A DNA stretch of 64,000 bases from Acutalibacteraceae bacterium (GTDB lineage Bacteria; Bacillota; Clostridia; Oscillospirales; Acutalibacteraceae), in contig JAZSHK010000073.1 in the NCBI GenBank assembly GCA_045533185.1, forward strand, positions 1,287-65,286. The letters are read 5' to 3'. How positions within the stretch are numbered: position 1 is the first letter of the stretch; each line of letters begins with the position of its first letter. The position numbers were made by a program, and so were the translations under genes. Shown one piece after another: positions 4,195 to 45,641 of this stretch. The notes beneath the pieces are model-generated. The model saw nothing but the letters and a program-made list of their open reading frames with translations, was not told the DNA's origin and searched no databases.

Positions 4195-4563
4195 ATGTCT
4201 GTTTATGAGTATATTATCGGCGCGATTCTGATCGTGTTTTCGCTGCTGATTATCGTGGTCGTGCTCTTCCAGGAGGGCCGTCAGGCGAACCTCGGCGTCA
4301 TCTCCGGTGCCGCGGATTCCTTTATGGATAAGGCGATGGCGAAGACGTGGGATGCCCGTTTGGCCAAGTGGACGAAGATCATTGCGGTCGCGTTCTTTGT
4401 GCTGGTGTTTGTCGGTATGCTGGTGACACAGTTCCTCAACCCTCAGGCGTTGAAGGGCTATAAGGCGGACGACAGCTCGTCCACTACCTCGACGACGACT
4501 ACGACGGCGTCTAGCACGACGACCACCACAGGCGCAACGACGACGACCACTGCTGCGAAATAA
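4195..4563 (+). CDS. secG: Preprotein translocase subunit SecG with Ser/Thr-rich C-terminal extension
   Basis: GGAGGG RBS lies 6 nt before ATG 4195; the track ORF starts earlier at GTG 4159. The protein has two TM helices and the SecG-like QEGRQANLG..G motif, followed by a tail SSSTTSTTTTTASSTTTTTGATTTTTAAK. Confidence 0.85.
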   Translation: MSVYEYIIGAILIVFSLLIIVVVLFQEGRQANLGVISGAADSFMDKAMAKTWDARLAKWTKIIAVAFFVLVFVGMLVTQFLNPQALKGYKADDSSSTTSTTTTTASSTTTTTGATTTTTAAK

Positions 4564-5372: not shown

Positions 5373-5449
5373 GGCCCGGTAGTTCAGCTGGTTAGAACGC
5401 TAGCCTGTCACGCTAGAGGTCGACGGTTCGAGCCCGTTCCGGGTCGCCA
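5373..5449 (+). tRNA. tRNA-Asp (GUC)
   Basis: Cloverleaf folded by hand. The acceptor pairs GGCCCGG with CCGGGTC, the anticodon loop is CUGUCAC, the T-loop is GGTTCGAGCC, and the 3' CCA is encoded. Confidence 0.9.
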
Positions 5450-5452
5450 TAC

Positions 5453-5528
<76 letters not shown>

Positions 5529-5529
5529 C

Positions 5530-5590
5530 AATGAATGACACCCCAAATGTGAACCATCACGGTTCGATTGAGGTGTCATTCATTCTTTTT
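5530..5590 (+). terminator. Terminator after the tRNA pair
   Basis: AATGAATGACACC ... GGTGTCATTCATT long stem followed by CTTTTT. Confidence 0.75.
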
Positions 5591-5598
5591 AACTCCAG

Positions 5599-5637
5599 TA
5601 AGGAACGGCTTTCGCGGCCGTTCCTTATTTATTTTTA
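5599..5637 (+). terminator. Second hairpin plus T-tract at the left edge of the AT-rich island
   Basis: AAGGAACGGC-TTTCGCG-GCCGTTCCTT followed by ATTTATTTTT. Confidence 0.55.
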
Positions 5638-5698
5638 ATCGAACTGTCAATGTCAAAACTCATCAAAATATGTGCAGAAATTTTAAAGGGGTAACGAA

Positions 5699-6274
5699 TT
5701 GAACTGGAAAAGTTCGATTAAACTGAAGAATTATCGTTATTTTGAGCGTGTTTTTTATTGTAAGAAGCCTCTGTATCGTTTGGGGTACGATATCGATTCA
5801 TTTGATGAGGTCGCTGACAACATCGGTACAAGCAAGGAAGATGCCGCCGAAATTATCCGATGCGGAATGCAGAATATGCAGTTTGTGGACTATTACCGCC
5901 AATACGCCGACGAGGATAGTGAAGAAAGCCGAGAAGAAATTGCACACGACAGTTCTGCCGAGCCGGACAAGTTGTTCTTTAAATTAGAACGTGCAGAAGC
6001 GATTATGGCAGCATTTGAAAAACTAAACTACCGTGAACGAGCAATGGTTTCTGCTCATCTTGGCTTTTGTATGGAATGTTATGCCACCCATTACTACGAT
6101 GCTGACGATTTAAATGAGGATGGAAAACCCACACGAAAACCGTTACCCGAAGAAGCGTTTATAGATATTGCCATAGATCACGGTTTGGCTTCGCCCGATA
6201 CCGCAGATAAAACGTATCGCAGGGCACTCAATAAGATAAAGAAAAAACTGAAAGAATGTAATAATTATGTGTAA
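5699..6274 (+). CDS. Sigma-70 family-like protein retaining only region 3/4 (possibly truncated)
   Basis: TTG start follows AAAGGGG. The C-terminus LNYRERAMVSAHLGF ... FIDIAIDHGLASPDTADKTYRRALNKIKKKL looks like a sigma region 4 HTH with an insertion. No region 2 is present upstream. Confidence 0.5.
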   Translation: MNWKSSIKLKNYRYFERVFYCKKPLYRLGYDIDSFDEVADNIGTSKEDAAEIIRCGMQNMQFVDYYRQYADEDSEESREEIAHDSSAEPDKLFFKLERAEAIMAAFEKLNYRERAMVSAHLGFCMECYATHYYDADDLNEDGKPTRKPLPEEAFIDIAIDHGLASPDTADKTYRRALNKIKKKLKECNNYV

Positions 6275-6505
6275 ATTTAAGAAGAATAAAAATAGGAAAC
6301 TTGCACAAAGAAAAAAGCAGTAAAAAGTATAGTGAAAAAGAAGGTTTATGACATTAAGTACTTCTCTTTTAAATCTTGTGTGCGAAATAATATGTTGCAA
6401 ACAGACCAATTCTTTTTGTCAGTTCGGTTTCAAAGGATCGGTTCACATCACTGTATCGCTGGGAAATTCTAGGCAAATTTTAGCTTCTTAATTTGCTGTT
6501 AAAAC

Positions 6506-6534
6506 TTGACAAATTATTTTGTTTGTGATACAAT
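6506..6534 (+). promoter_or_regulatory. Sigma-A promoter for the secreted-protein/ABC operon
   Basis: TTGACA, a 17-nt spacer, then TGaTACAAT, about 95 nt upstream of ATG 6631. Confidence 0.6.
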
Positions 6535-6630
6535 AATTCAAGTTTTTGTATAGAATGATGCGAGACTAAAATCATTTGAGAGAATACAAATAGCTAAAAT
6601 TCATTAAATATCAAAAGGAGTTTACAACAA

Positions 6631-7233
6631 ATGAATGCTAAAAAAATTTTTAAAAAAGTTATAACTGTTATGCTGTCTGTTATAGTTGTTTCTACGATGA
6701 CAATGCTTCCAGCTAGTGCTGCATATTCTTACTATAACAGTTATTCGTTCTCAACAGGCGCACTCTGGTGGAAGCAAAATTACACTGCCAAAGTTTACAG
6801 AGATCCAAACTGGTTTCGTGTTTATTACGGTAATGCCAACGTATCCACAGGGTTTGAATATAAAAATAATACTAACATAGTTTTATCACAAACAAAGAAT
6901 TTTTCTATTGGCACACAAACAAAAGCATCACTAAATGCAGGCGTTGACTTTTCAAGTTATGGGGTGCCAGCAAATGTTGGAGGCTCAATTGAAAAAACCA
7001 CTTCTGCATCTTGGGGTGCATCTAACACAGCGTCAAGAACTATTGAGGCGAGTGCACCAAAGGGATATTATAGTTACAATGTTTGCTTGAATACATATAA
7101 AATTAAAGTCACAAAGTATCAGAATGGCACCAACAAAGGAACCATACAGTTCTTTGCTCCTCGTAGCCAACCCTACCGATCTATAGTATATAATAGAAAT
7201 AACGCTTCTTATAGCGGTGTAACTCGTTACTAA
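6631..7233 (+). CDS. Small secreted beta-rich protein (Sec signal peptide), function unknown
   Basis: RBS AAAGGAG is present. The N-terminus MNAKKIFKKVITVMLSVIVVSTMTMLPASA|AY is a typical signal peptide. The mature part of about 170 aa is rich in S/T/N/Y/G with alternating polar and hydrophobic stretches. Confidence 0.75.
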   Translation: MNAKKIFKKVITVMLSVIVVSTMTMLPASAAYSYYNSYSFSTGALWWKQNYTAKVYRDPNWFRVYYGNANVSTGFEYKNNTNIVLSQTKNFSIGTQTKASLNAGVDFSSYGVPANVGGSIEKTTSASWGASNTASRTIEASAPKGYYSYNVCLNTYKIKVTKYQNGTNKGTIQFFAPRSQPYRSIVYNRNNASYSGVTRY

Positions 7234-7338
7234 TCATTGTTGTAGCAAACAATGGTTGTGAGAATATTGATTACCGATTGACAAATAAGGGGAGTATACG
7301 CACAAGTATACTCCCTTTATATATATGAGGAGAATCCT

Positions 7339-8208
7339 ATGAAAACAAAAAAAAGCTTATTAAACTTGATTAGTTTGATTTTAATAATTTTTCTATTTTC
7401 GGGTTGTACTAGTGAACAACAAGAAACTGCTGATTTTATGAATACTGCTTCTAACATTTTTATTAATTCTAAAAGTTTGGATACATTGTCATTTAATGTT
7501 GCTCTTTTTTCAAAACGAAAAATAGATAAAATTGATTATATGGGAATTGAAGGTACAAACGTAAACAATGATGATTATACCGTAAATATAATTGATAATA
7601 ATATTGATGTTTTAAATTCATATAAGTACAAAGGTTTATACATAAAATATATTATGGTAGAAATAACCGCTAAAGATAATATTAAAAATTGTACCTTCGA
7701 GAATCTTATCCTAAATGTTGATGGGGTTCGGCAATCTTTAAATTTTTCAACACCTGTTAATCATATATTTTCAGAAGGAAATATATTTACAGAAGAATTG
7801 CAAATTTCAGTTATTCCTAATGAATTTCCTTCGAGTTTTATAAATAATAAACAAGAAGGCGTAACGTATGAATTTTATGCGACAGAGGATGTTGTGTTGC
7901 AGGATATACGTCTTGATGATTTTTTGTCTGTATCCAATGTTATTTATGCAATTGGAGATGAAGATGCACATAATGCCGATTTTCCAATAGATGTAAAAAA
8001 AGGAGAAACGATTAGGATTTCCTTTTCTTTCACTTCCAATTCTGTAAATGAGTTAAGTTATGTCGCTACAAACATTTATTTTGATTATTTAACGAAATCA
8101 GACAATGAAAAACTTTTGAATAGTGTATTTGTTGTTTTTGATCCTATCTATCCTGTTATTGAGAATGACGCTTCCAACATAAATAAAATAGTAGACAGTC
8201 TAAAATAA
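7339..8208 (+). CDS. Lipoprotein, function unknown
   Basis: RBS GAGGAG is present. The signal peptide ends in the lipobox LFSGC. No recognisable catalytic motif. Confidence 0.7.
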   Translation: MKTKKSLLNLISLILIIFLFSGCTSEQQETADFMNTASNIFINSKSLDTLSFNVALFSKRKIDKIDYMGIEGTNVNNDDYTVNIIDNNIDVLNSYKYKGLYIKYIMVEITAKDNIKNCTFENLILNVDGVRQSLNFSTPVNHIFSEGNIFTEELQISVIPNEFPSSFINNKQEGVTYEFYATEDVVLQDIRLDDFLSVSNVIYAIGDEDAHNADFPIDVKKGETIRISFSFTSNSVNELSYVATNIYFDYLTKSDNEKLLNSVFVVFDPIYPVIENDASNINKIVDSLK

Positions 8209-8228
8209 TAATTTCAAGGAGAATTTAA

Positions 8229-9080
8229 ATGAAAAAGATTTTACCGTTTATTTGCATTCTTCTTCTTTTGACATCATGTATATTTGGAATTTTGTATTTT
8301 ACCGCATTAGATGATGAGGAAAATGATCTAGAAGTTCAACAATCCACAACGCCTTTAAGATCAACGGTAGAGTCTGGAATCATTAATAGTACGATCACAA
8401 CTACTGGAAATGTTATCAATGACGCTGCCGATATCTATATAGAAAATATATCTATTGATTTTGAAAACAAATTAGACAGCAAGTATTTTAGATCAACACA
8501 TAAAATCGGAGATGTTTTAAAAAAAGATGATATTCTATATACATATAAAGAAAAAGACATACAGACAAAATACGATTGTAAAATTGTAAATATGATTATT
8601 TCTGAAGAGTCAGTTCAATTTAATCTTTTAAACTATGATAAATTATTTATTGTTGCTTCTATTGATTATGATAAATTGAATTTACTTAATTTTGACACCA
8701 AAACAATAATAACTCTAACAACGCAAGATGCGACAAAAACATATACTGGCAAAATTATTAATTTTGGTTATGAAGTAAAAGATGGAAAAGTGGATGTGCA
8801 AATCCATTCTGATGAAAAATTTCTCCCCGGCACCCCTTTGGAAATCAGTTTTGAAATAGTACATCAAACAGAATCTCTCTATATATTAAAACAAATGCTT
8901 TTAATGGATGGAGATATCTATTATGTTGAAGTCGAAAATGAAGATGGACAAAGAACTCGTAGAGAAGTTGAAATAGGTGATTTTTTTGACGAATATTCTA
9001 ACAATGAGAAAATTGAGTATGTAGAAATAAAAAATGGCTTACAATTAGGAGAACGCCTAATTGTAGATATTATAGAATAG
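8229..9080 (+). CDS. Membrane-fusion / periplasmic adaptor protein (HlyD/YknX-like)
   Basis: There is an N-terminal TM anchor and a lipoyl-like IGDVLKKDDILY segment. The C-terminal beta-barrel pattern YYVEVENEDG..REVEIGD...VEIKNGLQLGERLIVD is typical of MacA/YknX adaptors. Confidence 0.7.
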   Translation: MKKILPFICILLLLTSCIFGILYFTALDDEENDLEVQQSTTPLRSTVESGIINSTITTTGNVINDAADIYIENISIDFENKLDSKYFRSTHKIGDVLKKDDILYTYKEKDIQTKYDCKIVNMIISEESVQFNLLNYDKLFIVASIDYDKLNLLNFDTKTIITLTTQDATKTYTGKIINFGYEVKDGKVDVQIHSDEKFLPGTPLEISFEIVHQTESLYILKQMLLMDGDIYYVEVENEDGQRTRREVEIGDFFDEYSNNEKIEYVEIKNGLQLGERLIVDIIE

Positions 9081-9088
9081 GTGATTTC

Positions 9089-9754
9089 ATGGCAAAGACT
9101 ATAATAGAAATGGAAAAAATCAAAAAAACCTACGATGGCAAAAGATATGTGTTAAACGATTTGTATTTTACGGCTCAAGAAGGAGAATTAACTATAATTA
9201 AAGGACAATCAGGTTCTGGAAAAAGCACACTTTTAAACATTTTAGGACTACTTGATGTTTTTGATTCAGGTACATATATATTGAATAACCATCAAATTGA
9301 TTCTCAAAAAAACAACAAATACGCAAACATACGCTCGGATATGATTGGATTTATTTTCCAATCATATCATCTAATCGAGTCAATCAGCATTCAAGATAAT
9401 ATTTTGCTACCTTTTTTATATTCTGAAAAAAGAATTAGTACAGAAGTTATTCAGCGAATGAAAACTATTCTTGAAAATTTTAATCTGATTGAAATGAAAG
9501 ATAAAAATGTTTCTTTACTTTCAGGCGGTGAAAAACAACGAGTAGCAATAGCACGTGCAATTATAAAGAATCCTCCGTTAATTATCGCTGATGAGCCTAC
9601 AGGGAATTTAGATGATGAAAACTCACGAATTGTAATTGATTATCTTAAAGATCTGACATTCAATGGAACTACTATAGTCTTAGTTACTCATGATATGAAT
9701 TTATTGAAATATGGCGATGCCTCTTATTCACTGAAAGAAGGCAGGTTAATCTAA
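9089..9754 (+). CDS. ABC transporter ATP-binding protein (MacB/LolD/FtsE type)
   Basis: Walker [11 protein letters not shown]-loop, signature [14 protein letters not shown], Walker [14 protein letters not shown] and H-loop VTHD are all present. Confidence 0.9.
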
Positions 9755-11073
9755 TGAAAGTGAATAAATTTTTCTTTTACATAAAACATCTTTTCAAAAT
9801 GTGCTTTTATAACAAATTTAGATTCCTTCTTTCAGTTATTGGCTTGTTCGTAGGATTATTTGTGTTTACTACAGGAAATATTTTAATTGATTCGTATTAT
9901 AATGAAAACAGAAAAAACGCAGCTCAAATGGACGAACACATTGTGGCATTAAGGTACGAATCTGAAGATAGAATTGACAAACAAACTATCATTAATTCAG
10001 CCTTTGAAGCAATATTTGCTACTGAAAAGACAACTATTTTTGCAAAAAAATACCAAGATGATTTGATATGTTCTCTTTCTGCTTCTATTGTCGGTGTCTC
10101 TAATATAGATGATGTAATTCCTATACAATCAACAAATGGAGATTTTTTAATTACAAAAAGCAGCTTATTGAAGGGACGGTTTATTAACGGAAATGATATT
10201 GCCCTTAGCAATAATGTTATTGTAATAGATGAATTTACTGAATCACTTCTTTTTCCAAATGGAAACGCTATAGGCTCATCAATCACACTTGATGTTTCTC
10301 TGCCCGGTATTAGTAATATTTCCACTAAACCAGAAACAGGAGACAAAATAGAAAAAAGACAATGTGTTGTAATTGGTGTAATAAGAAACAGTTATTTTCA
10401 AACGCAAGAAAAAATGAGATTTGATAAATTTTGCAAAAACGCTTCTGAAACAATTCAATTAAATACAATGGTATACTGCCCCTTCTCCTATGTTAATAAT
10501 AACTTTGAAATATCTTCTCAAAAGCTCCTTATTTGGAATGAAGCAAGTAATAATCAAAAAATAAAAGACCGTCTTACTTTATATAAAAATCAAAGTCTGA
10601 AAGAATTTTCTTCATATGATATAATAGACAGAAACTCAGTTATGACTAAAAATGCCAACGAGTTAAAGCCTTTGAAAGTATTCCTAACATTAATTATGTT
10701 AATTTTATTAATTATTTCAGGAATTAATGCTATGAATACTATGTTTTTTTCAATAAAAGAAAGAATAAACGAAATTGGTATAAAAAAAGCTTTAGGAGCT
10801 ACAAAATTAGAAATATTGAATCAATTTATTATAGAAGGAATGATGATATCTTTTATTGCTTCAATTGTAGCTATTATTTTCGGTTGCTTGACAGTACTTT
10901 TAATACAAACGTATCTTAATGAAAGATTATTTATCCTATTTGAAGTTGTTTTTAAACCTTCAAATTTATTGCTACCTATTTTCGTGGCTTTTCTATATGG
11001 ATTTGTTTTTAGCGTCATTCCAAGCTATTATGGCGCAAGAATTAAGGTTACTGATTCGTTAAGATTTGAATAA
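9754..11073 (+). CDS. ABC transporter permease, FtsX/MacB family
   Basis: The start overlaps the ATPase stop (TAATG). The protein has an N-terminal TM, a large extracytoplasmic domain and a C-terminal FtsX block (ERINEIGIKKALGATK...). Confidence 0.85.
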   Translation: MKVNKFFFYIKHLFKMCFYNKFRFLLSVIGLFVGLFVFTTGNILIDSYYNENRKNAAQMDEHIVALRYESEDRIDKQTIINSAFEAIFATEKTTIFAKKYQDDLICSLSASIVGVSNIDDVIPIQSTNGDFLITKSSLLKGRFINGNDIALSNNVIVIDEFTESLLFPNGNAIGSSITLDVSLPGISNISTKPETGDKIEKRQCVVIGVIRNSYFQTQEKMRFDKFCKNASETIQLNTMVYCPFSYVNNNFEISSQKLLIWNEASNNQKIKDRLTLYKNQSLKEFSSYDIIDRNSVMTKNANELKPLKVFLTLIMLILLIISGINAMNTMFFSIKERINEIGIKKALGATKLEILNQFIIEGMMISFIASIVAIIFGCLTVLLIQTYLNERLFILFEVVFKPSNLLLPIFVAFLYGFVFSVIPSYYGARIKVTDSLRFE

Positions 11074-11075
11074 CA

Positions 11076-11312
11076 GCAGACCGTTACTCGACATTTTTGA
11101 ATTTTCGCAATGTAAGCATTTAATACATTTGACTTTTCGAGACATACTTTGTGTAATGTTGTGTTCTATTAATAATTTTGGTACTCGGCATGTTGGTACT
11201 TCCAACCTTGGTCTGAATGAAATATTGATATTGCATCAGCAGGTAACTTTTCAAAATAAGCAGTTAAGCATTTTTCTAATTTGTTCTAAATTAGGACTTG
11301 TTGAAACGGAAT
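11076..11312 (-). pseudogene. IS3-family transposase (rve integrase core) remnant, frameshifted and truncated
   Basis: The minus strand reads ..ADAISIFHSDQGWKYQHAEYQ, then after a frameshift KLLIEHNITQSMSRK. This matches the conserved HSDQG.QY ... SMSRKGNC block of IS3 OrfB. Stops interrupt it and the ftsX-like gene cuts it off. Confidence 0.6.
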
Positions 11313-11360
11313 AAGATATGATCTCGTTGTTAAATAAATAACCATAAAACAAAAAAAGAA

Positions 11361-11409
11361 GCTCCATTAGGAATGTAGAAATTACTGCGCTCCTAACGGA
11401 GCATTTTTG
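11361..11409. terminator. Hairpin with flanking A/T tracts (possible bidirectional terminator)
   Basis: GCTCCATTAGGA ... TCCTAACGGAGC, preceded by AAAAAAA and followed by ATTTTT. Confidence 0.45.
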
Positions 11410-11488
11410 GTTTTTAACACGCATATATCGTTTTTAGAGGGGACTTGTTTATTCCTACTCGCTCCCGAAAAGAGAAAATTAATCAATT

Positions 11489-11722
11489 TTGCATAAATAT
11501 TTTTACTCACATTATGGTGAGTGCGGCATTCATAACGATGGCGTGATATATTTCATTTATATAATGAACGAAGAATCCTATTGTTATTTGGAGATGGATC
11601 CAACAACTCAAGAAATTTTACACGAGGACGATCCGATGTTTATTGGATCTGAGGAAAGAAACGAGCGTGTTAATAAACTAATTGAAATTATTAACACCAT
11701 TATTGATTCAAAAAGCAATTGA
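11489..11722 (+). CDS. Hypothetical small protein (weak call)
   Basis: Open frame only, with a TTG start, no clear RBS and no recognisable motif. Confidence 0.25.
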   Translation: MHKYFYSHYGECGIHNDGVIYFIYIMNEESYCYLEMDPTTQEILHEDDPMFIGSEERNERVNKLIEIINTIIDSKSN

Positions 11723-11816
11723 CAAAAGGCAAAGGGCCGTTGGAATTAAATCCAGCGGCTTTTTGTAAAATATAACTCAAATGGTGGAAAATATTATTTA
11801 AATATGTAATATATAC

Positions 11817-11845
11817 TTGACATTTTTCATATACTGTGATATACT
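11817..11845 (+). promoter_or_regulatory. Sigma-A promoter for the XRE module
   Basis: TTGACA, a 17-nt spacer, then TGaTATACT, 20 nt upstream of ATG 11865. Confidence 0.6.
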
Positions 11846-11864
11846 CTATTGCGGAGGTGGAAAT

Positions 11865-12071
11865 ATGGCAAAAAACATACGTATTAAGATTGCACGAATT
11901 GAAAAGGATATGACACAAGCTCAATTAGCAGAAGCTGTTGGTGTTTCCAGACAAACGATGAGCGCAATCGAAAAAGGTGATTACAATCCAACGATTAAAT
12001 TATGTATTGCTATATGCAAAGTTTTAAATAAAACATTAGATGAGCTTTTTGGAGGGATTGATTATGAGTAA
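11865..12071 (+). CDS. XRE-family HTH transcriptional regulator
   Basis: RBS GGAGGTGG precedes ATG 11865. The sequence MTQAQLAEAVGVSRQTMSAIEKGDYNPTIKLCIAICKVLNKTLDELF is a canonical Cro/C1 HTH of the YozG-like short type. Confidence 0.9.
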   Translation: MAKNIRIKIARIEKDMTQAQLAEAVGVSRQTMSAIEKGDYNPTIKLCIAICKVLNKTLDELFGGIDYE

Positions 12072-12507
12072 AAAGCAATATGACGAAAAACAAATCATAG
12101 AAAGAGGAAAATCTTTTCAATACGCCTTCACTGGTGCTATCGTAGTAAATATTATCATTTATTTATTAAGCGATTTTGTTGGAATAGGTTTTGCCAATGG
12201 TGCAATCTGTCTGATAAATATAGGTTTACCAATCGCAATATATATGCTTTCGATGATTATTAAGAATGGTTATGACGGTGTTTCAAATGCCGGCAAAAAA
12301 TTGAATATCTCTGCATTGGGCGGTTGCGGAGTTGCTCTGCTGATTGTATATTTGCCTGACATTATTTCGGGTAAAAAGCTTTTAATAGATAATGCACTGA
12401 TTACCGAAAGTGCTGGTGCTTTGTTAATTAGTATTTTGATCTTAGTAGTGGTGCTTGTATATTGGATAAAGAAGCATATTGAGAAGAAAAGCGAAAACGA
12501 CGAATAA
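12064..12507 (+). CDS. Multi-pass membrane protein coupled to the XRE regulator
   Basis: ATG 12064 follows GGAGGG and overlaps the XRE stop by 8 nt. There are about 4 hydrophobic helices. The arrangement resembles XRE plus small membrane protein pairs common in Firmicutes. Confidence 0.7.
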   Translation: MSKKQYDEKQIIERGKSFQYAFTGAIVVNIIIYLLSDFVGIGFANGAICLINIGLPIAIYMLSMIIKNGYDGVSNAGKKLNISALGGCGVALLIVYLPDIISGKKLLIDNALITESAGALLISILILVVVLVYWIKKHIEKKSENDE

Positions 12508-12520
12508 GGAGAACTTGGCT

Positions 12521-12724
12521 ATGAAATGTCCACATTGTAACAGCGAAAATATTGAAGTAGGCTTGAGAATGTTTGAGTCGCTCAACGGAAGTCCTGTTGG
12601 CTTTAGATTTAGCAAAGGAATTATGAGTGTAGTGGCACAGATACACTGTGATATATGCAAAGACTGCAAAACTATAGTAAGAAGTTATATTATCGAATCT
12701 ACCGACAAAAAGTGGCTTAAATAA
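12521..12724 (+). CDS. Zinc-ribbon small protein
   Basis: RBS AAGGAGAA is present. The motifs CPHC ... CDICKDC give a four-Cys zinc-ribbon pattern in 67 aa. Confidence 0.6.
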   Translation: MKCPHCNSENIEVGLRMFESLNGSPVGFRFSKGIMSVVAQIHCDICKDCKTIVRSYIIESTDKKWLK

Positions 12725-12763
12725 TTTGTTATAAAAGTAATCCATTTTCCAACACAATATCCA

Positions 12764-12805
12764 CGAACAGGGCAGAGTTTATAATACTCTGCCCTGTTCG
12801 TTTAT
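12764..12805 (+). terminator. Rho-independent terminator after the XRE module
   Basis: A 14-bp perfect stem CGAACAGGGCAGAG / CTCTGCCCTGTTCG followed by TTTAT. Confidence 0.8.
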
Positions 12806-12816
12806 AAAATAGGTAT

Positions 12817-12969
12817 TCAATTGTAAATAATTTCGTTTTGTATAATTTCTGTAGCTCGATTATAAATATTGTTCATACGACCAATCCATTCCATTTGGTT
12901 ATCTGCTTTAAGTTTTTCTGTCACGCCATATAAAGCAACGACACAGGATCTTACTTGATCCTGTGCCAT
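12817..12969 (-). pseudogene. TnpV (transposon-encoded protein) C-terminal remnant
   Basis: The minus strand reads MAQDQVRSCVVALYGVTEKLKADNQMEWIGRMNNIYNRATEIIQNEIIYN*. This matches the conserved C-terminal LKA.DQM.W...MN.I...AEEIVL.EL.Y block of clostridial TnpV proteins. Upstream is blocked by a stop, so only about 50 aa remain. Confidence 0.6.
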
Positions 12970-13043
12970 GTGCTTTTTGTCATCCTACTCGGTCTGCGTA
13001 ATTCTCCTTTAAGAACATTACGCTTTAGTGGGCGGGATTTTTC

Positions 13044-13072
13044 TTGTATACGCACCTCTTTTATGCTATAAT
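13044..13072 (+). promoter_or_regulatory. First copy of the cassette promoter (TTGTAT-17-TGCTATAAT)
   Basis: It shares CACCTCTTTTATGCTATAAT with the six downstream R elements. Downstream of the -10, its leader differs from theirs. Confidence 0.65.
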
Positions 13073-13122
13073 AAACATAACATAATGGATAATGACTATA
13101 TAACGATGCTTAGGAGGTTAAT

Positions 13123-13560
13123 ATGCGTAAAAATTCTTTATGGATGATGCTTGGTTCACTCGTTACGATACTTATAATATTATGCTTTTCTTTTTTTACA
13201 AGTTATGAAAAAAATATACATAAGATGTTAGGTACGATGGTGGTCTATAAACACGAAAGTATAACAACCCATCTGTCTTCCGATGCTTGTGCATATTTGT
13301 CTGACGGAAATCGTTCATTGTATTTTGGTGAGTTGCCATCTGAAGAATCTGCTATAGAAATCAACAGTCCCGATAGAGCAACATTATATGTATTTCCACT
13401 AGATGATGATTCTATAATTATTAAGTATGAGCCACGAAACGGCGGAATTAAAAGAACCTATAAAAAATCCGGTTATGGAGATTTTAATTGCGTATTAAAA
13501 ACCTTGTACGAGCTTACGGGTAATGAAATTTTTAACGAAACAATAGATTACGATAATTAA
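13123..13560 (+). CDS. Cassette ORF 1: membrane-anchored hypothetical protein
   Basis: RBS TAGGAGG is present. The protein has an N-terminal TM helix and no recognisable domain. Confidence 0.7.
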   Translation: MRKNSLWMMLGSLVTILIILCFSFFTSYEKNIHKMLGTMVVYKHESITTHLSSDACAYLSDGNRSLYFGELPSEESAIEINSPDRATLYVFPLDDDSIIIKYEPRNGGIKRTYKKSGYGDFNCVLKTLYELTGNEIFNETIDYDN

Positions 13561-13565
13561 AATAT

Positions 13566-13791
13566 GAAAATCCTCGGTTTTCACCCAGTTCTTTTTCGGA
13601 CACAACATCGTTTTGCAACGCAGTTGCAAACATCATTTAGCCGAAGGCTAACATCGTTCCGCTTTAGCGGACACAAAACGAGGTTGCGCTTTGCGCAAAC
13701 AGTGTTGTGCTTCGCACAAACGATATAGGCTTACGCCCAACGATGTTGCACTTCGTGCAAATTTATGCTATAATACGCTTAAGGCGGTGAT
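13566..13791 (+). repeat. Inter-cassette element 1 (conserved L end, variable palindromic core, conserved R promoter/RBS end)
   Basis: The L block lies at 13566-13603. The core has AACATCGTT-type words (x3), then AACGATGTT-type words, and seven mini-hairpins. The R block at 13762-13791 carries TTGCAC-17-TGCTATAAT and AAGGCGGTGA. Confidence 0.85.
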
Positions 13792-13794
13792 GAA

Positions 13795-14193
13795 ATGGAT
13801 TGGAAAGAAAAGTTTAAAAAATCTTTAGATTTTACTTATGAGATGGTAAAACGTAAGGTCGCTGATATTAAATATCCGTGTTACGGTGGAGAAATTTATA
13901 AGTATGCATTTCTAATACATCAACAAGAACTTTATTTTTATTTAACTCCCCGAGGAATACTATTTACGCCGAGTGGTGCTTCCGTTAAAGAGATACCCTT
14001 TAGCGATATAAGAAAATTGGCTATAAAAAAAGGCAGAATTATTAATTGGTATCATATTCGCTTTATAGCAGATAAAAAGTATCATTTTTATATTCATTGC
14101 AAAGAAGTGTTTTCAACTGAATTAACGGGTGATGCATCTGAAAATGTAAAAGCATTTATCGAAACTTTGCGATTAAGTGTTAAAAACAATTAA
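13795..14193 (+). CDS. Cassette ORF 2: bacterial PH/GRAM-like (YokE-like) domain protein
   Basis: The start is 7-8 nt after the conserved RBS. The pattern GILFTPSGASVKEIPFSDIRKLAIKKG...HIRF resembles bacterial PH-domain proteins. Confidence 0.7.
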   Translation: MDWKEKFKKSLDFTYEMVKRKVADIKYPCYGGEIYKYAFLIHQQELYFYLTPRGILFTPSGASVKEIPFSDIRKLAIKKGRIINWYHIRFIADKKYHFYIHCKEVFSTELTGDASENVKAFIETLRLSVKNN

Positions 14194-14200
14194 TTATTAC

Positions 14201-14504
14201 GAAAATCCTCGGTTTTCGCCCATTTCTTTTTCGGACACGAATGACAAAAAAACTCCTTGAGATTTCTCAAGGAGTTTTTCAGTTATATTCGCCTTCGGCG
14301 AGTTATATTGCTTCGCAGTGATATTTAGGCTACGCCTAAGTGATATTGCCCTTCGGGCAGTTAAGGGCGAATATAATATCACTTTTGCGATAGCAAAAAT
14401 ATCACTATGCCGTAAGGCATAATATCACTCTGTGCGGAGCACAAAATATCACTAACCCTTGCGCCTTTACCTCTTTTATGCTATAATGTACCCAAGGCGG
14501 TGAT
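14201..14504 (+). repeat. Inter-cassette element 2
   Basis: The L block lies at 14201-14248 and the terminator hairpin at 14245-14280. The words AGTTATATT/AGTGATATT occur x4, then AATATCACT x4, interleaved with GC mini-hairpins. The R block lies at 14464-14504. Confidence 0.85.
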
Positions 14505-14507
14505 TGT

Positions 14508-14930
14508 ATGAAGAAGTTAAGAATTATTATTTTGATATTTATAATATTTGGTTTAATTTTTTCGGTTGGCGGTGCATTTCTTTGCGTAAATGCTTTTGAT
14601 TATGGTAATAAAGCAGAAACAACCGCAGTAATCACTGATTTTGAGTCTTATCGGGAACATGCTGGCGGCAAATGGCGAACGCGTTATAAAACTCATTTGA
14701 CATATGAGGTTGACGGCGAATCTTATGACAATACTGTTAAAATGTATTCGTCTTCATGGAATATAGGAGAAAAAATCGAAATTTATTATGATGTTGATAA
14801 TCCTCAAAACATTGGTTCAAAACATACAGATTTAGCATTACTTGTAGTACCGTGTCTCGGCTTGTTGTTTTTTAGTTCCGGAACGATACTAATGTTAATA
14901 ACTCGTAAAAAAGCGAAAATGATAAATTGA
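14508..14930 (+). CDS. Cassette ORF 3: DUF3592-like membrane protein
   Basis: The protein has an N-terminal TM, a beta-rich middle (TTAVITDFESY...YEVDGESY...IEIYYDVDNP) and a C-terminal TM. This is the typical DUF3592 layout. Confidence 0.75.
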   Translation: MKKLRIIILIFIIFGLIFSVGGAFLCVNAFDYGNKAETTAVITDFESYREHAGGKWRTRYKTHLTYEVDGESYDNTVKMYSSSWNIGEKIEIYYDVDNPQNIGSKHTDLALLVVPCLGLLFFSSGTILMLITRKKAKMIN

Positions 14931-14973
14931 GTTTTGAATTTGCTAAAATACGGTTAAATAATGGCATTTACAA

Positions 14974-15228
14974 AAAAATCCTCGGTTTTCGCCCAGTTCT
15001 TTTTCGGACACGAATGACAAAAATCCCGAATGCGAAAGCGTTCGGGATTTTACTTTTTCACTATTCACTTTTCACTCTTCACTAAATTCGCATTCGGGAT
15101 TTTTGGAAAGTACGAAGTAATAGTGAATAGTGAAGAAGTAATGTGTGGCTTCGCCACGGATTATAAAATACAATGCTCCGCATTGATTTATTGCCGCTTT
15201 TATGCTATAATACACCCAAGGCGGTGAT
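14974..15228 (+). repeat. Inter-cassette element 3
   Basis: The L block lies at 14974-15023 and the terminator at 15019-15051. TTCACT occurs x4, then AGTGAA-type words. The centre repeats the terminator arm. The R block lies at 15193-15228. Confidence 0.85.
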
Positions 15229-15231
15229 TAA

Positions 15232-15567
15232 ATGTTTGAAGAAATGATTTTCATTGCAAAAAATAAACTTGCGACAATAGATGAAATTATTGAAGGATTA
15301 CCAGCACCACAAGTTACAGTGCTTTTATCTAATAACAATAATGTTTATGTAGCAGTTAATGATATTGATGGAATAATCTGCGAAAAAATAAAACACGATA
15401 AAATCACTCAAATGCTTACTATGTGGAAAGATGGGAGTATCGATATATCTTCTTACGCCTTTCGCAAGACTCTTGTTAAAATGGATAGAGATAACAACAA
15501 TACGGATGTTTTATTACAGGGTAAGAATAATTACTTGATTAAAAAATTAGCAGACACAATTATCTGA
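15232..15567 (+). CDS. Cassette ORF 4: cytoplasmic hypothetical protein
   Basis: It has the conserved RBS and spacing. No TM segment and no recognisable motif. Confidence 0.65.
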   Translation: MFEEMIFIAKNKLATIDEIIEGLPAPQVTVLLSNNNNVYVAVNDIDGIICEKIKHDKITQMLTMWKDGSIDISSYAFRKTLVKMDRDNNNTDVLLQGKNNYLIKKLADTII

Positions 15568-15568
15568 T

Positions 15569-15879
15569 TAAAAATCCTCGGTTTTTAGACCAGTTCTTTT
15601 TCGGACACGAATGACAGAAAAAAGGACTTCACATTCGTGAAGTCCTTTTTTCAATGAAATTCGTTCCTTGCGGAACGAGTGAAATATTGCTACGCAATAT
15701 GAAATACGCTTCGCGTATGAAATATGCCTACGGCATATGAAGGAACGAATTTTATTTCACATTTTTGCATCGCAGAAATATTTCATAATCCGAAGGATTA
15801 TTTCATATCGGCAGAGCCGATATTTCATTATACCTTGCTCTTCCACCGCTTTTATGCTATAATTTACCCAAGGCGGTGA
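15569..15879 (+). repeat. Inter-cassette element 4
   Basis: The L block lies at 15569-15620 and the terminator at 15617-15651. TGAAAT occurs x4-5, then ATTTCA x4, each separated by 5-7-bp mini-hairpins. The R block lies at 15841-15879. Confidence 0.85.
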
Positions 15880-15883
15880 TTTT

Positions 15884-16564
15884 ATGAAACGTAAATTATC
15901 GAAACTTGCAATTATTTGCTTATGTGTATTTTTTGTAGTTGTAATTGGAATTTTTGTATTGTTATGGAATAGTGGTACTTTTGTATTTGATCACTCGGCA
16001 AAAGTTGGATTTGAAGGTATGGTTTGGAATGATAAGAATTATTCAACAATTACCGGCGAATATACAGAGGGGAGAACAATTGCCAAAAGTGAAGATGGTA
16101 GTTGGAAAATCAATGAAGTTAAAGAAGATCCATCACATACTTTTGTTGTTGCACGTTCTTTTTTAGACCAATATTTATTTGTTTTTGATGGTTATACGGT
16201 TCCTACAAGCGGTAAAATCACAACGGTTTGTTGGAATGGTGAGTACATTAAAGATAAAGACTTTATAGAAGTTTTAGCAAAAATTGATGTTGCCAAAACA
16301 ACCTCGTTTGATTATGAAACAGAAGCAATATTTCTTCTTAATGATAATCAGCGTATGAAGTCTTTATATTTTGCGTATGAAAATTGTCCTGTTGCAACGG
16401 TAAATAAGGGCTGGTTAGGGAAAATAAAAGGCGAATGGGTTATAACCACATATATTTCTTCTAACCAAAATAATGAAGATGGTTCTCCAAAACCGTACAT
16501 GGTAGGATGCTATTCTATTCCTGATAAATATTCGCAAATTTTAGATAAGTACTTTTTTGAATAA
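15884..16564 (+). CDS. Cassette ORF 5: membrane-anchored hypothetical protein
   Basis: It has the conserved RBS and spacing and an N-terminal TM helix. The remaining extracytoplasmic part of roughly 195 aa is of unknown function. Confidence 0.7.
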   Translation: MKRKLSKLAIICLCVFFVVVIGIFVLLWNSGTFVFDHSAKVGFEGMVWNDKNYSTITGEYTEGRTIAKSEDGSWKINEVKEDPSHTFVVARSFLDQYLFVFDGYTVPTSGKITTVCWNGEYIKDKDFIEVLAKIDVAKTTSFDYETEAIFLLNDNQRMKSLYFAYENCPVATVNKGWLGKIKGEWVITTYISSNQNNEDGSPKPYMVGCYSIPDKYSQILDKYFFE

Positions 16565-16596
16565 TTAAGCGCTGTTATATAATACAATTATAAGTA

Positions 16597-16824
16597 AATC
16601 TTCAGTTTTCAGGCACATTTTATTCGTGTCATTAAGTTCAAACTACCCAAACGAAAATCCGTTCTCGTAAGAGGGCGGATTTTTGTTTGTATTATTCACT
16701 ATTCATTAAAAGAGAACGGATTTTCGAATGAATAATGAAAAATGAAGTCGCTTACGCTGATGAATAATGAATAATTCTTGCGGTTCCACCGCTTTTATGC
16801 TATAATACACCTAAGGCGGTGAAA
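16597..16824 (+). repeat. Inter-cassette element 5 (divergent L end)
   Basis: The divergent L block lies at 16597-16635 and the terminator at 16652-16690. ATTCACT/ATTCATT words are followed by AATGAAT-type words. The R block lies at 16786-16824. Confidence 0.8.
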
Positions 16825-16828
16825 TCTC

Positions 16829-17260
16829 TTGAAAATTAAAAAATATATTTTTATTCCAATATTAGTTGTATTATGTATAATTCTTTATGCTGTTTTTGCA
16901 AAGCCAGCTATTGAAACACACACTTGGGTGTTATCTATGGCACAAAAAGCAGAGCCGTTTTCTGTAGTAGCACATAAAACTGGATATGATTTTTCTGATG
17001 ATGACAGTAATATTTTTGCATTTTCTAAAGAAATAGAACTCACCTGCACAGCAAAAGATGGTAAACTTACCATAAGTGACAAAACAAATGGGAAAACCTA
17101 TGAAGGAATCTACAAAGTCACTTCTTGGGGGAGGTTTACAGGACAAAGTTATACCGTGATTATAGATGGAAAAGACGGCACTGCAAATATTAGTTCAAAA
17201 TTTAACCGCACCTTATTTATATCGGTTGGGGGTTATTATTTGACTTTTGAAATTCAATGA
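16829..17260 (+). CDS. Cassette ORF 6: membrane-anchored/secreted hypothetical protein
   Basis: TTG start lies at the conserved distance from the RBS. The protein has an N-terminal hydrophobic helix and a beta-rich remainder. Confidence 0.65.
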   Translation: MKIKKYIFIPILVVLCIILYAVFAKPAIETHTWVLSMAQKAEPFSVVAHKTGYDFSDDDSNIFAFSKEIELTCTAKDGKLTISDKTNGKTYEGIYKVTSWGRFTGQSYTVIIDGKDGTANISSKFNRTLFISVGGYYLTFEIQ

Positions 17261-17266
17261 TTTATA

Positions 17267-17448
17267 AAAAAATCCTCGGTTTTTACCCAGTTCTTTTTCG
17301 GACACGAATGACAAAGCCCCAAGGACGATAAGTTCTTGGGGCTTACTTCTTACCTATTACCTCTTCACTCTTACCTCAAAATGTCCTTGGGGCTTTGGGA
17401 ACTAAGAAGTAAGAAGTAATAAGCATTGCGCCTTCTCCGCTTTTATGC
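17267..17448 (+). repeat. Inter-cassette element 6, with R end truncated at the island/core junction
   Basis: The L block lies at 17267-17315 and the hairpin at 17315-17343. CTTAC(C/T)-type words are followed by AGTAAG-type words. The R copy stops after CCTTCTCCGCTTTTATGC at 17448, where GC-rich DNA begins. Confidence 0.85.
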
Positions 17449-17501: not shown

Positions 17502-17645
17502 TTAATTCCCACCGGGGCCGTCTCTGCGCTCACGCGTATCGTGAATGTCGATCTTCCCTTTAATATCGCCTGGGTTGGTGAGCTTCTTTTTCGTTTTCTC
17601 CTGCTCGGGTTGTTGCTTTTGCTCCATTGAGTTGTTCTCTGACAT
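17502..17645 (-). CDS. Small hydrophilic protein (47 aa), not in the ORF track
   Basis: The minus strand has AAAGGAG 8 nt before ATG 17645. It reads MSENNSMEQKQQPEQEKTKKKLTNPGDIKGKIDIHDTRERRDGPGGN*, ending at 17502. Confidence 0.5.
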   Translation of the reverse strand: MSENNSMEQKQQPEQEKTKKKLTNPGDIKGKIDIHDTRERRDGPGGN

Positions 17646-44291: not shown

Positions 44292-44577
44292 TTGCAATTT
44301 CAGAAAATGATGCTATAATACTTAATAACGCTGTGATCGAGAGAGTACGCATCGGATCAGCATCCCAGAGAGAGGCGCCTTGGCTGAAAGCGTCTTATGC
44401 CCCGTCGATGCCGAAGTTCACTCGTGAGCGGCCGCGCTCAACAAACACGCTGTTTCAGTAGGCGCGGACGGTGGATCCCGTTATCGATCACAAAAGTGTT
44501 TGCTTTTGCAAAAATTCAGGGTGGTACCGCGGAGATGCTGTCTTCGTCCCTATTGGGATGAGGGCACTTTTTATTTT
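44292..44577 (+). promoter_or_regulatory. Promoter plus T-box leader (Phe specifier) controlling pheST
   Basis: The promoter is TTGCAA-16-TGCTATAAT. Stem I has AGAGAGTA. The specifier loop reads GAA-TTC-A, with TTC at 44417-44419. The T-box sequence GGGTGGTACCGCG lies at 44518-44531. A terminator stem at 44539-44562 is followed by a T-run. Confidence 0.85.
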
Positions 44578-44615: not shown

Positions 44616-45641
44616 ATGAAAGAACAACTCGAGGCTCTGCGTGCGCAAGCACTGGAGGAGCTCAAATCACTGGAATCCCCGAAGGAATTAGAGGATTTCC
44701 GTGTGCGTTATATGGGCAAGAAAGGCTCGGTGACGGGCCTTCTGCGCGGTATGGGCGCACTCCCTGCCGAGGAGCGTCCCGTGATGGGTCAGCTGGTCAA
44801 CCAGCTTCGTCAGGAGCTGGAGGATGCCGTCACAGAGAAAAATCAGGCCGTGCAGGCAAAGCTGCAAAAGGAACAGCTCGAGAAAGAGAAGCTGGACGTC
44901 ACGATGCCCGGCAAAAAGGTTGCGAGCGGCGGCTTGCATCCCCTTAACGTCGTGCTCGATGACATCATCGACATCTTCCAGTCGATGGGCTTTGATGTGA
45001 TCGACGGGCCCGAGGTGGAGACGGATTATTATTGTTTCCAGGCGCTCAACGTGCCGGAGGACCACCCCGCGCGCGATATGCAGGACACCTTCTATCTGAC
45101 GGATAATCTGCTGCTCCGTACCCAGACCTCCGCGGCGCAGGCGCGCACGATGGAAGCGACCAAGCCTCCCATTCGCGTCATCTGCCCCGGCCGTGTGTAC
45201 CGCGCCGACGAGGTCGATGCGACACACTCCCCCGTGTTCCACCAGATCGAGGGTCTGGTCATCGACAAGGGCGTGACGATGTGCGATCTCAAGGGCGTTC
45301 TCGAGCAGTTCGCGCACGAGATCTACGGCGAAGATACCCGGATTCGTTTCCGCCCCTCCTTCTTCCCCTTCACCGAGCCGAGCGTCGAGGTCGACGTCAC
45401 CTGCTCGGCGTGCGGCGGCAAGGGCTGCCGTGTGTGTAAGGGCGCGGGCTGGATCGAGATCCTCGGCGCCGGAATGGTGCATCCACGCGTGCTGGAGATG
45501 GGCGGTATCGACCCCGAGGAGTATTCGGGCTTTGCATTCGGCATCGGCCTTGATCGCTTAACCACCACCCGCTACAAAATCAGCGATATTCGTCTGCTGT
45601 TCGAGAACGATCTGCGTTTCCTCGAGCAGTTCGACCGATAA
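44616..45641 (+). CDS. pheS: Phenylalanine--tRNA ligase alpha subunit
   Basis: Class II motifs are present ([30 protein letters not shown]). Confidence 0.95.

Follow-up and report, generated by a model that had tools for sequence, protein, structure and literature searches.

The 64,000-nucleotide stretch of Acutalibacteraceae bacterium DNA analysed here (GenBank assembly GCA_045533185.1, contig JAZSHK010000073.1, positions 1,287 to 65,286; hereafter the window) carries a head-to-tail array of six small open reading frames (ORF1 to ORF6), each preceded by a conserved block, R, and followed by a second conserved block, L. In gut Oscillospirales, such arrays are seeded where a tRNA operon ends, directly behind its last tRNA, and their cargo is a shared, low-GC and mostly orphan gene pool moving between species. 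The organisation has integron-like logic but is not an integron. The arrays appear to be built of self-expressing cassettes, the cores of which would be swapped mainly by homologous recombination or gene conversion within R and L, a reading to which we give an even chance of being right. The analysis was computational throughout, and the source genomes are mostly metagenome-assembled genomes (MAGs).

In the window, the array lies in an island of 28-35% GC between flanks of 52-58% GC. The exact core of L was identified at 13571, 14206, 14979 and 17273 (0 expected from shuffled sequences), with a copy bearing a 1-nt insertion at 15570 and a divergent copy at 16597. The core of R was identified at 13762, 14475, 15199, 15851 and 16794 (0 expected by chance), with a promoter-only copy at 13053 and a last copy, 17426-17448, truncated exactly after TTTTATGC. 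These are the copies that the original prediction, made by reading the sequence alone, had placed here. Its description of six unrelated genes in an AT-rich island lacking an intact recombinase also holds. The six ORFs have no mutual similarity (blastp, nothing better than E = 0.3), and Pfam analysis of all island ORFs found no intact recombinase, the sole trace being a C-terminal TnpV fragment (12817-12969, minus strand).

Loci were collected with an exact L pattern, each locus being an 8-kb block around an L match. The pattern was found at no fewer than (at least) 118 loci in a species-representative genome collection and in 50 metagenome stretches. All genomes bearing L are MAGs from the guts of ruminants, other animals and humans and belong to Acutalibacteraceae, Oscillospiraceae or related Clostridia, and several of them possess two or three separate L loci. 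Hidden Markov models found 167 copies of L and 204 of R, which are co-stranded in 118 of 119 sources in the order R...L...R...L. Among 119 adjacent R-to-L pairs, 118 hold an ORF, and in 88% of these 118 a single ORF spans from the R start codon to a few bases before L (median gap to L 3 nt; sizes 58-270 aa). The proposal that conserved ends bracket single unrelated ORFs was thereby extended to more than 100 genomes; the blocks are not confined to one locus, and they are co-oriented around ORFs rather than dispersed and unpaired in the manner of repetitive extragenic palindromes (REP) or miniature inverted-repeat transposable elements (MITEs). A phage or plasmid origin was considered and rejected, as L gave 0 matches in the viral contigs of IMG/VR and none in the plasmids of PLSDB.

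The order of cassettes is shuffled. Among 26 adjacent cassette pairs no adjacency was seen twice. A protein identical to that of ORF6 is encoded on 13 other contigs (0-1 nt differences over 432 nt on 11 of them) and one identical to that of ORF2 on 12 others (0-4 nt differences over 399 nt on 10 of them); each gene occurs in at least five unrelated neighbourhoods, none of which matches the order of the window. Five species sharing an orthologous tRNA Val-Asp-Phe-Gly-Cys/Trp site, ahead of which lies a gene that we take by eye to be Hsp33-like, each have a different first cassette. At the site of the window itself, array DNA of four close relatives (86-90% identity in the thioredoxin-domain gene) abuts the same host ORF with three different distal array ends. 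A relative of 73% identity has no array at this site, and in L145, the nearest relative without an array, synteny is lost on the tRNA side. The array is thus not invariant among close relatives, and the cassette-array logic read from a single genome is borne out by identical cassettes in different contexts. Assembly chimeras are an unlikely explanation because L and R, at 45-58 nt, are shorter than the reads and than the assembly k-mer of 141 (as inferred from contig names beginning k141_).

The features of the window array and its setting are as follows; F numbers denote spacer families, and terminators and promoters are predicted.

5373-5528 (+): tRNA-Asp and tRNA-Thr, probably the head at which the array was seeded (ARAGORN, Rfam).
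5529-13020 (+): mobile-element remnant unrelated to the array, between tRNA-Thr and the array (Pfam; left-end match in locus L058).
13021-13043 (+): remnant 3' half of an F1-type spacer terminator (GTGGGCGGGATTTTT), read against tRNA-proximal spacers.
13044-13122 (+): R copy 0, with a TTGTAT-17-TGcTATAAT promoter, a non-canonical 5' untranslated region (UTR) and an AGGAGG Shine-Dalgarno (SD) sequence.
13123-13560 (+): ORF1, 145 aa, with an N-terminal transmembrane (TM) segment and no family match.
13566-13745 (+): L copy 1, which lacks its right end and a terminator and is joined to spacer 1 (of family F4, with the heptad word AACATCGTT / AACGATGTT).
13746-13794 (+): R copy 1, TTGCAC-17-TATAAT, AAGGCGGTGA.
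13795-14193 (+): ORF2, 132 aa, orphan.
14201-14458 (+): L copy 2, terminator at 14248-14279, and spacer 2 (family F5, word AGTGATAT).
14280-14351 (+) and 14394-14477 (-): Gut-1 matches in the spacer 2 region (Rfam).
14459-14507 (+): R copy 2.
14508-14930 (+): ORF3, 140 aa, DUF3592, two TM segments.
14974-15182 (+): L copy 3, terminator at 15020-15051, and spacer 3 (family F1, contiguous heptads TTCACTN / AGTGAAK).
15183-15231 (+): R copy 3, TTGATT-17-TGcTATAAT.
15232-15567 (+): ORF4, 111 aa, orphan, with homologues in cassettes of L092 and L113.
15570-15834 (+): L copy 4 (1-nt insertion), terminator hairpin at 15617-15652, and spacer 4 (family F6, that is, Gut-1).
15835-15883 (+): R copy 4.
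15884-16564 (+): ORF5, 226 aa, N-terminal TM segment, orphan.
16597-16776 (+): L copy 5 (variant 'L2'), terminator at 16648-16689, and spacer 5 (family F2, heptads AATGAAT).
16777-16828 (+): R copy 5.
16829-17260 (+): ORF6, 143 aa, TTG start, N-terminal TM segment.
17267-17425 (+): L copy 6, terminator hairpin at about 17312-17343, and spacer 6 (F1-like, heptads TAAGAAG).
17426-17448 (+): truncated R (TTGCGC...CTTTTATGC), the distal end of the array.

The truncated R abuts the host terminator of a convergent operon consisting of a 47-aa ORF and a thioredoxin-domain gene. The 47-aa ORF (MSENNSMEQKQQPEQEKTKKKLTNPGDIKGKIDIHDTRERRDGPGGN; window 17502-17645, minus strand) lies downstream of the thioredoxin-domain gene, and the array adjoins its 3' end; it is conserved in every relative examined and belongs to no Pfam family. 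In two close relatives of the window organism (L146, reverse complement of about 2940-3129, and L147, reverse complement of about 4238-4329) the last ~24 nt of this ORF are tandemly duplicated at the junction of array and host (GAATTCCCGCCAGGGCCGTCTC followed by TAATTCCCGCCGGGGCCGTCTC), which could be a footprint of joining. A T-box leader (123 bits) at 44324-44554 (plus strand), upstream of an ORF at 44616-45641, is an ordinary one and unrelated to the array.

Alignment of all copies of R gives the layout TTGnnn, a 17-nt spacer ending in TRTG, TATAAT, about 6 nt, AAGGCGGTGA, 5 nt and the start codon. A logo of 199 copies shows conservation from the -35 element to the SD sequence, and the start codon lies 5 nt past GGTG in 70 of 98 cassettes. 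This pattern matches that of Gram-positive sigma-A promoters of the extended -10 type, together with a strong SD sequence. On this resemblance, R is a near-consensus extended -10 promoter and ribosome-binding site (RBS) of predicted activity. A simple promoter scanner calls only one R copy because the -35 hexamers match TTGACA weakly. A dyad in R (CCGC...GGCGG) was considered as an RBS-masking hairpin that insulates cassettes from read-through. The hairpin does appear in predicted minimum-free-energy folds, but its real partners pair no better than permuted ones (5.41 versus 5.40) and the idea was rejected. In L137 (3408-3457), L140 (2366-2415) and L142 (1391-1440), a compact linker of ~45 nt (TTTGTCCCTAATTTAACACAAGCA directly followed by TATAAT) joins the upstream ORF straight to the -10 box of R. 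It holds no L, terminator or spacer, and its breakpoint lies exactly at the left edge of TATAAT.

L is a near-invariant block of ~48 nt that opens with a small hairpin (GAAAAUCC-UC-GGUUUUC). It is conserved from AAAATCC to GACAAAA and followed by a GC hairpin and T-run (logo of 163 copies). The stop codon of the cassette mostly lies 1-20 nt before ATCCTCGG, most commonly 5 nt. A GC-rich hairpin and T-run follow L in five of the six window copies, terminator-like sites in the array number 20 against 2.8 expected (7-fold), and in one spacer family the terminator hairpin shows compensatory changes at 8 of 10 pairs. An intrinsic terminator, the activity of which is predicted, usually follows L. 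L copy 1 is fused directly into its F4 spacer at a GGACAC microhomology (13596-13612), and the identical junction recurs in another species (L098, about 6100-6130); it is an inherited or a recurrent microhomology deletion. Cassettes 1 and 2 would be co-transcribed, since this copy lacks its right end and terminator.

The L copy at 16597 had been located correctly but regarded as simply divergent. It represents a recurring second version, 'L2', in which the left hairpin is kept and the right half is different (window 16597-16651; L013 2013; L072 3831; two copies in L087). The right half of 'L2' holds the canonical-L 11-mer GACACGAATGA in inverted orientation. It was also considered whether L is a remnant of a tRNA 3' end, that is, an att scar. 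The geometry fitted (5 + 7 + 1 + CCA), but similarity was below background and this origin was rejected: compared with 120 tRNA 3' ends, L reached at best 13/23 identities with a mean of 8.5, where the tRNA-versus-tRNA mean is 13.7.

The first R of an array lies 80-500 nt downstream of a same-strand tRNA, of many identities, in 41 loci. Among fully observable heads that start with R, 23 of 41 (56%) lie less than 500 nt after a same-strand tRNA, against a background of 3.9%. The CCA of the tRNA is followed by a terminator, a spacer of the same families and then R, so that within arrays L occupies the position of the tRNA. Arrays at tRNAs for Thr, Cys, Asn, Leu, Arg, Trp and Gly have the same L. 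L004 possesses the same Asp-Thr tRNA pair as the window, with R 144 nt later. A 'Bacteriophage sp.' contig without L or R has the same layout of tRNA, terminator, Gut-1 spacer and small ORF. In these bacteria the heptad spacers natively form the trailers of tRNA operons.

In the window, an unrelated AT-rich element of 7.5 kb was inserted later and splits tRNA-Asp and tRNA-Thr from the array. It encodes uncharacterised ORFs, a secreted protein, a lipoprotein, an ABC ATPase with an FtsX/MacB permease, an HTH_3 regulator and the truncated TnpV. The left end of this element (5527-5675, CAATGAATGACAYCCCAAAT..., two hairpins) is 80% identical to L058 2021-2170. It lies directly after the tRNA CCA in the window and directly after L in L058, so that, as insertion points for this element, the ends of tRNAs and of L are interchangeable. 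The half-terminator remnant at 13021-13043 marks the old junction. Neither the seeding at tRNA operons nor this insertion figured in the original prediction.

Two further observations concern the neighbourhood of arrays. Genes of the 23S_rRNA_IVP four-helix-bundle family (PF05635) are the commonest non-canonical array neighbour, found at 9 of 118 loci (e.g. L056 4472-4888, minus strand); one also occurs at L198 4213-4578, after the tRNA, terminator and Gut-1 spacer of a human-faecal 'Bacteriophage sp.' contig without L or R. L119 (10486-10700 and 11530-11745) contains a second, unrelated family of inter-cassette repeats downstream of a canonical R-ORF6-L unit, with its own terminator, a promoter-like TGCTATAAT / GATATAAT and a GGAGG SD sequence, suggesting that other cassette 'dialects' may exist.

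The middles between L and R had been described as sharing no sequence. This is correct within the window, where the six spacers are all of different word types, but not overall, as the middles are structured and fall into families recurring across genomes. Those of the window fold better than shuffled sequence (RNA-fold z-scores of -3.2 to -8.9), and seven main families, which recur in other genomes, were distinguished among 78 L-to-R spacers. Each family has its own 7-nt word: AGTGAAT/AGTAATA, AATGAAT, GATGATAT, AACGATGTT, AGTGATAT, GTGAAAT (Gut-1) and AATGATGT. Within a spacer the word occurs first direct and then inverted, either contiguously or ~21 nt apart with small hairpins between, and autocorrelation of the spacers peaks at lags of 7, 14 and 21. 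A conserved long-range A:A' pairing or pseudoknot in F1 and F2 spacers was rejected. The pairing is perfect in three window spacers but strict in only 8 of 52 spacers, and A' is often of another type than A across the family.

The GTGAAAT-word family is the Rfam motif Gut-1 (RF01706). In the window the gathering threshold of 50 bits was passed in spacers 2 and 4 only, with 74.0 bits at 15652-15728 (plus strand), 54.9 bits at 15749-15830 (minus strand) and 52.1 bits at 14280-14351 (plus strand). Matches fall on both strands within one spacer in both cases, and the matching segments hold the canonical three hairpins separated by GUGAAAU-like words. Gut-1 was reported merely as a motif occurring in human-gut sequence, and its discoverers, noting covariation, judged it likely to be an RNA (Weinberg et al. 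2010, PMC2864571). Whereas it has been known as a context-free orphan motif, here it is one half of an inverted pair and one of about seven sister families with differing heptad words, and it sits between terminator and promoter, both in tRNA trailers and between cassettes.

The 118 cargo ORFs fall into 62 clusters, of which 32 are singletons. They are real genes, given a median ratio of non-synonymous to synonymous substitution rates (dN/dS) of 0.21. Their GC content is uniform (median 30.7%) whatever that of the host (33-61%). About 15 of 114 cargo proteins have any Pfam match, including HAD hydrolases, peptidases/esterases, YcxB, DUF975 and DUF3592, to which PADLOC, NCBIfam and PHROGs added nothing for these 114 proteins. 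A defence or immunity role of the cargo was considered and rejected, as the four profile libraries gave essentially nothing; among toxin-immunity families, one weak LXG match, no Imm and no SUKH were found in the 114 proteins. The family of ORF2 comprises only 7 clusters among 5.8 billion proteins, and its AlphaFold2 model is of low confidence (predicted local distance difference test score 57).

The boundaries of exchange were read from cassettes shared between loci, in which homology begins at about R and breaks off after the end of L. Column-by-column linkage analysis showed that R variants through the -35 region travel with the upstream spacer, while those from the -10 box on increasingly go with the ORF (rising from about 40% at -10 to about 95% at the SD sequence and 5'UTR), the switch being centred on the invariant block CCGCTTTTATGC. 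As for L, linkage to the ORF is complete in the stop-proximal hairpin arm, and the right half follows neither the ORF nor the spacer downstream. Individual breakpoints are scattered, lying exactly 5' of TATAAT, between the -10 box and the SD sequence, and between the SD sequence and ATG. The positions of the distal array ends likewise vary and the ends are ragged. Polymorphisms of R and L that are shared between copies are reassorted in mosaics, and both blocks are near-identical even where synonymous divergence (dS) of the cargo is 1-1.9, which fits homogenisation or strong constraint.

These boundaries are consistent with a model in which each cassette, comprising the R promoter and SD sequence, one ORF, L and usually an intrinsic terminator, would be an autonomous expression unit. 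The exchanged core extends from the -10 box to the L hairpin. The invariant parts of R and L would serve as portable homology arms through which cores may be swapped, added or lost by recombination or gene conversion, and the conserved tRNA gene would provide a further recombination anchor, with no dedicated linked recombinase involved. This mode of exchange is favoured by the lack of a recurrent recombinase in the loci, the reassorted polymorphisms, the gradual rise of ORF linkage from the -10 box to the SD sequence, the variable distal ends and the absence of R/L hybrid junctions in 198 loci. Several observations weigh against this model. The identical stretches, of about 20-45 nt, are marginal for RecA-type recombination, yet exchange outpaces point mutation. 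The apparent invariance of L is inflated because the loci were gathered with an exact L pattern. ORF linkage collapses immediately 3' of the L hairpin instead of decaying across L. Two independent junctions lie exactly between TTTATGC and TATAAT, one at window 17448 and the other in L137/L140/L142, and the junction of tRNA CCA and terminator is precise. The sharp loss of linkage and these exact junctions would be compatible, too, with a structure- or site-specific enzyme that is encoded elsewhere. As to such an enzyme, no recurrent recombinase was found near the arrays in the 8-kb blocks of 118 loci, where genes more than 4 kb away or acting in trans are beyond reach.

The strongest alternative is a true integron analogue, in which a serine, tyrosine or HUH recombinase encoded in trans would cut the L hairpin and the CCGCTTTTATGC/TATAAT boundary of R, inserting and excising cassettes at tRNA or L 3' ends. 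The sharpness of the linkage loss at the L hairpin, an imperfect palindrome, the centring of the R switch on an invariant block, the two exact breakpoints 5' of TATAAT and the precise junction after CCA all speak for it. Many arrays also end as L plus terminator only, as expected if insertion took place between the tRNA or L and the old terminator. However, breakpoints also occur between the -10 box and the SD sequence and between the SD sequence and ATG. The right half of L assorts independently of both neighbours, distal ends are ragged, and R is fully accounted for as a promoter and RBS. A survey of 198 loci showed no hybrid junctions of R-left/L-right or L-left/R-right type, the 'empty' junctions that core excision would be expected to leave. 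There is moreover no recurrent recombinase, the best candidate occurring in 3 of 118 loci and stemming from a different, larger element. On balance we regard a trans-encoded enzyme of this kind as doubtful. A wider version, in which the arrays would be a gene-capture platform and integron counterpart served either by an unlinked enzyme acting at the L hairpin and the R invariant block or by an efficient short-homology pathway, with the Gut-1 and other heptad spacers as functional parts (e.g. insulators or protein-binding arrays), can be entertained only tentatively.

In four loci the L hairpin is itself the junction of an element with tandem large serine recombinases (Resolvase, Recombinase and Zn-ribbon domains; L010 500-2370, L080 4302-5494 on the minus strand, L100 17-1153 and L115 at ~449 on the minus strand), a point that has been counted in favour of cleavage at L. 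The end of the element lies ~110 nt ahead of a hybrid L in which the left hairpin arm has been replaced (...AAAATTAAGG joined to GTTTCTCACCAG...). The hybrid looks like an attR, so the L hairpin would serve as attB for this element. The large serine recombinase was rejected as the cassette enzyme, being part of a larger tandem-recombinase element that merely integrates at L. Its relatives in IMG/VR are 36-51% identical and occur without L and R.

Another explanation makes the spacers the primary units, as structured RNAs of the Gut-1 family produced by read-through from tRNA operons or cassettes, with the ORFs as passengers. It draws on the discoverers' judgement of Gut-1, on the strong fold z-scores and on a precedent for small RNAs between the dual terminators of rRNA operons (PMC8144298). 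Loop counts are biased on the plus strand (UUC 44 versus GAA 12; GAAA 11 versus UUUC 1), although UNCG/GNRA tetraloop statistics, with a moderate plus-strand bias, do not settle the strand or the question of RNA versus DNA. The spacers, however, lie downstream of predicted strong terminators, every spacer contains the motif in both orientations, long-range pairings are weakly or not conserved and the ORFs are under purifying selection; we consider this explanation unlikely. Slightly less credible still is that L-spacer-R is a self-spreading mosaic intergenic repeat, resembling BOX, bacterial interspersed mosaic elements (BIMEs) or MITEs, that settled between pre-existing host genes. Its modular build of conserved ends and interchangeable middles, the recurrence of spacer families independently of ORFs and the occurrence of spacers after a tRNA in another contig, unaccompanied by L or R, would suit such a repeat. 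Against it, the left part of L and the right part of R segregate with the ORF and not with the spacer, the ORFs are of ~31% GC regardless of host GC, near-identical orphan ORFs occur in unrelated species and contexts, and neither L nor R was ever found dispersed or unpaired on opposite strands. Finally, that unrelated genes independently gained a common promoter/operator and 3'UTR under one regulator, the array being a mere cluster, is very improbable: the shared promoter, 5'UTR and 3' block would permit global control and R holds a CACCGC...GCGGTG dyad, but this dyad is without covariation, flanking sequence of ~100 nt is near-identical in many species at saturated cargo dS, identical ORFs occur in shuffled contexts and the GC of the cargo is foreign.

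No prior description of the L/R system was found in the literature searched. Its components and layout appear to be new, though it works like a cassette array. Like integrons and attC-site clusters without integron-integrases (CALINs), it forms head-to-tail arrays of mostly single, unrelated orphan ORFs with tight boundaries and conserved inter-cassette ends; order is shuffled, relatives vary, and CALIN arrays can likewise occur with no integrase close by (Cury et al. 2016, PMC4889954). All Firmicutes genomes analysed in that study were without complete integrons (Cury et al. 2016, PMC4889954), and the host here belongs to the Clostridia. In contrast to integrons, neither IntI nor an intI pseudogene was found here (Pfam analysis of the island; 118 loci). 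The consensus sequences of L and R (163 and 199 copies) are not mutually complementary and lack RYYYAAC/GTTRRRY cores, in agreement with the earlier remark that the attC R''/R' consensus is absent. Integrons use a common promoter, Pc, for mostly promoterless cassettes, whereas each cassette here has its own predicted promoter and RBS, usually with a terminator; the conserved blocks segregate with the ORF, and arrays start at tRNA genes. Of the original view of an integron-like cassette array without an integron, the organisational logic therefore stands. The idea of L...R as an attC-like recombination site is not supported, with R a predicted promoter and RBS and L a 3' block ahead of a terminator. 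Nor is L...R a unit, since L and R segregate with the ORF and the middles are independent spacer families including Gut-1.

The rAID-1 arrays of Bacteroidales (Ross et al., bioRxiv 10.1101/471110) likewise occur in gut commensals and consist of co-directional, low-GC small genes with repetitive intergenic sequence and signs of active gene acquisition. They are headed at the 5' end by a XerD-like tyrosine recombinase and hold immunity genes. The arrays described here are headed by a tRNA, with no tyrosine recombinase among recurrent neighbours and no recognisable immunity families; phylum and repeat sequences also differ. Tycheposons (Hackl et al., bioRxiv 10.1101/2020.12.28.424599) resemble these arrays in that variable DNA accumulates directionally beside tRNA genes, with several tRNA seeds per genome and successive acquisitions stacked. 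They differ in being multi-kb elements, in having tRNA-specific integrases and in leaving behind partial copies of the cognate tRNA. The present units measure 0.6-1.2 kb, no integrase was found, and the same L, which is not tRNA-derived, follows any tRNA.

The pneumococcal BOX and the enterobacterial BIME/REP elements are modular intergenic repeats with conserved ends and variable middles, scattered among ordinary host genes, and are not known to flank foreign cargo. L and R, by contrast, are co-oriented, bracket low-GC foreign ORFs and have variants that segregate with the ORF. In the 'minimal mobile elements' of Neisseria, whole-gene cassettes are swapped by homologous recombination in conserved flanks that are host genes; in place of such flanks, the present cassettes have dedicated non-coding arms of ~50 nt with a promoter and a 3' block. 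Phage morons are autonomous promoter-ORF-terminator units inserted between other genes. They are not known to share a common promoter or 3' block or to form tRNA-linked arrays. L gave no match in IMG/VR, only Gut-1-like fragments, without L or R, occurring in two 'Bacteriophage sp.' records.

These arrays would extend cassette-array organisation to abundant gut Firmicutes by means of entirely different parts, namely a 5' block that bears a promoter, a 3' block with a hairpin, spacers built of heptads, and seeding at tRNA genes. An orphan RNA motif since 2010, Gut-1 gains a genomic home, testable roles and sister families. The blocks form a natural promoter-RBS-ORF-3'UTR-terminator 'landing pad' of possible use for engineering Oscillospirales, where tools are scarce. 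If exchange is recombinase-independent, the arrays would be a natural model of how short dedicated homology arms drive modular genome evolution. For the poorly cultured commensals of humans and livestock that carry them, they amount to a large pool of mobile, orphan small genes, of which many encode membrane proteins.

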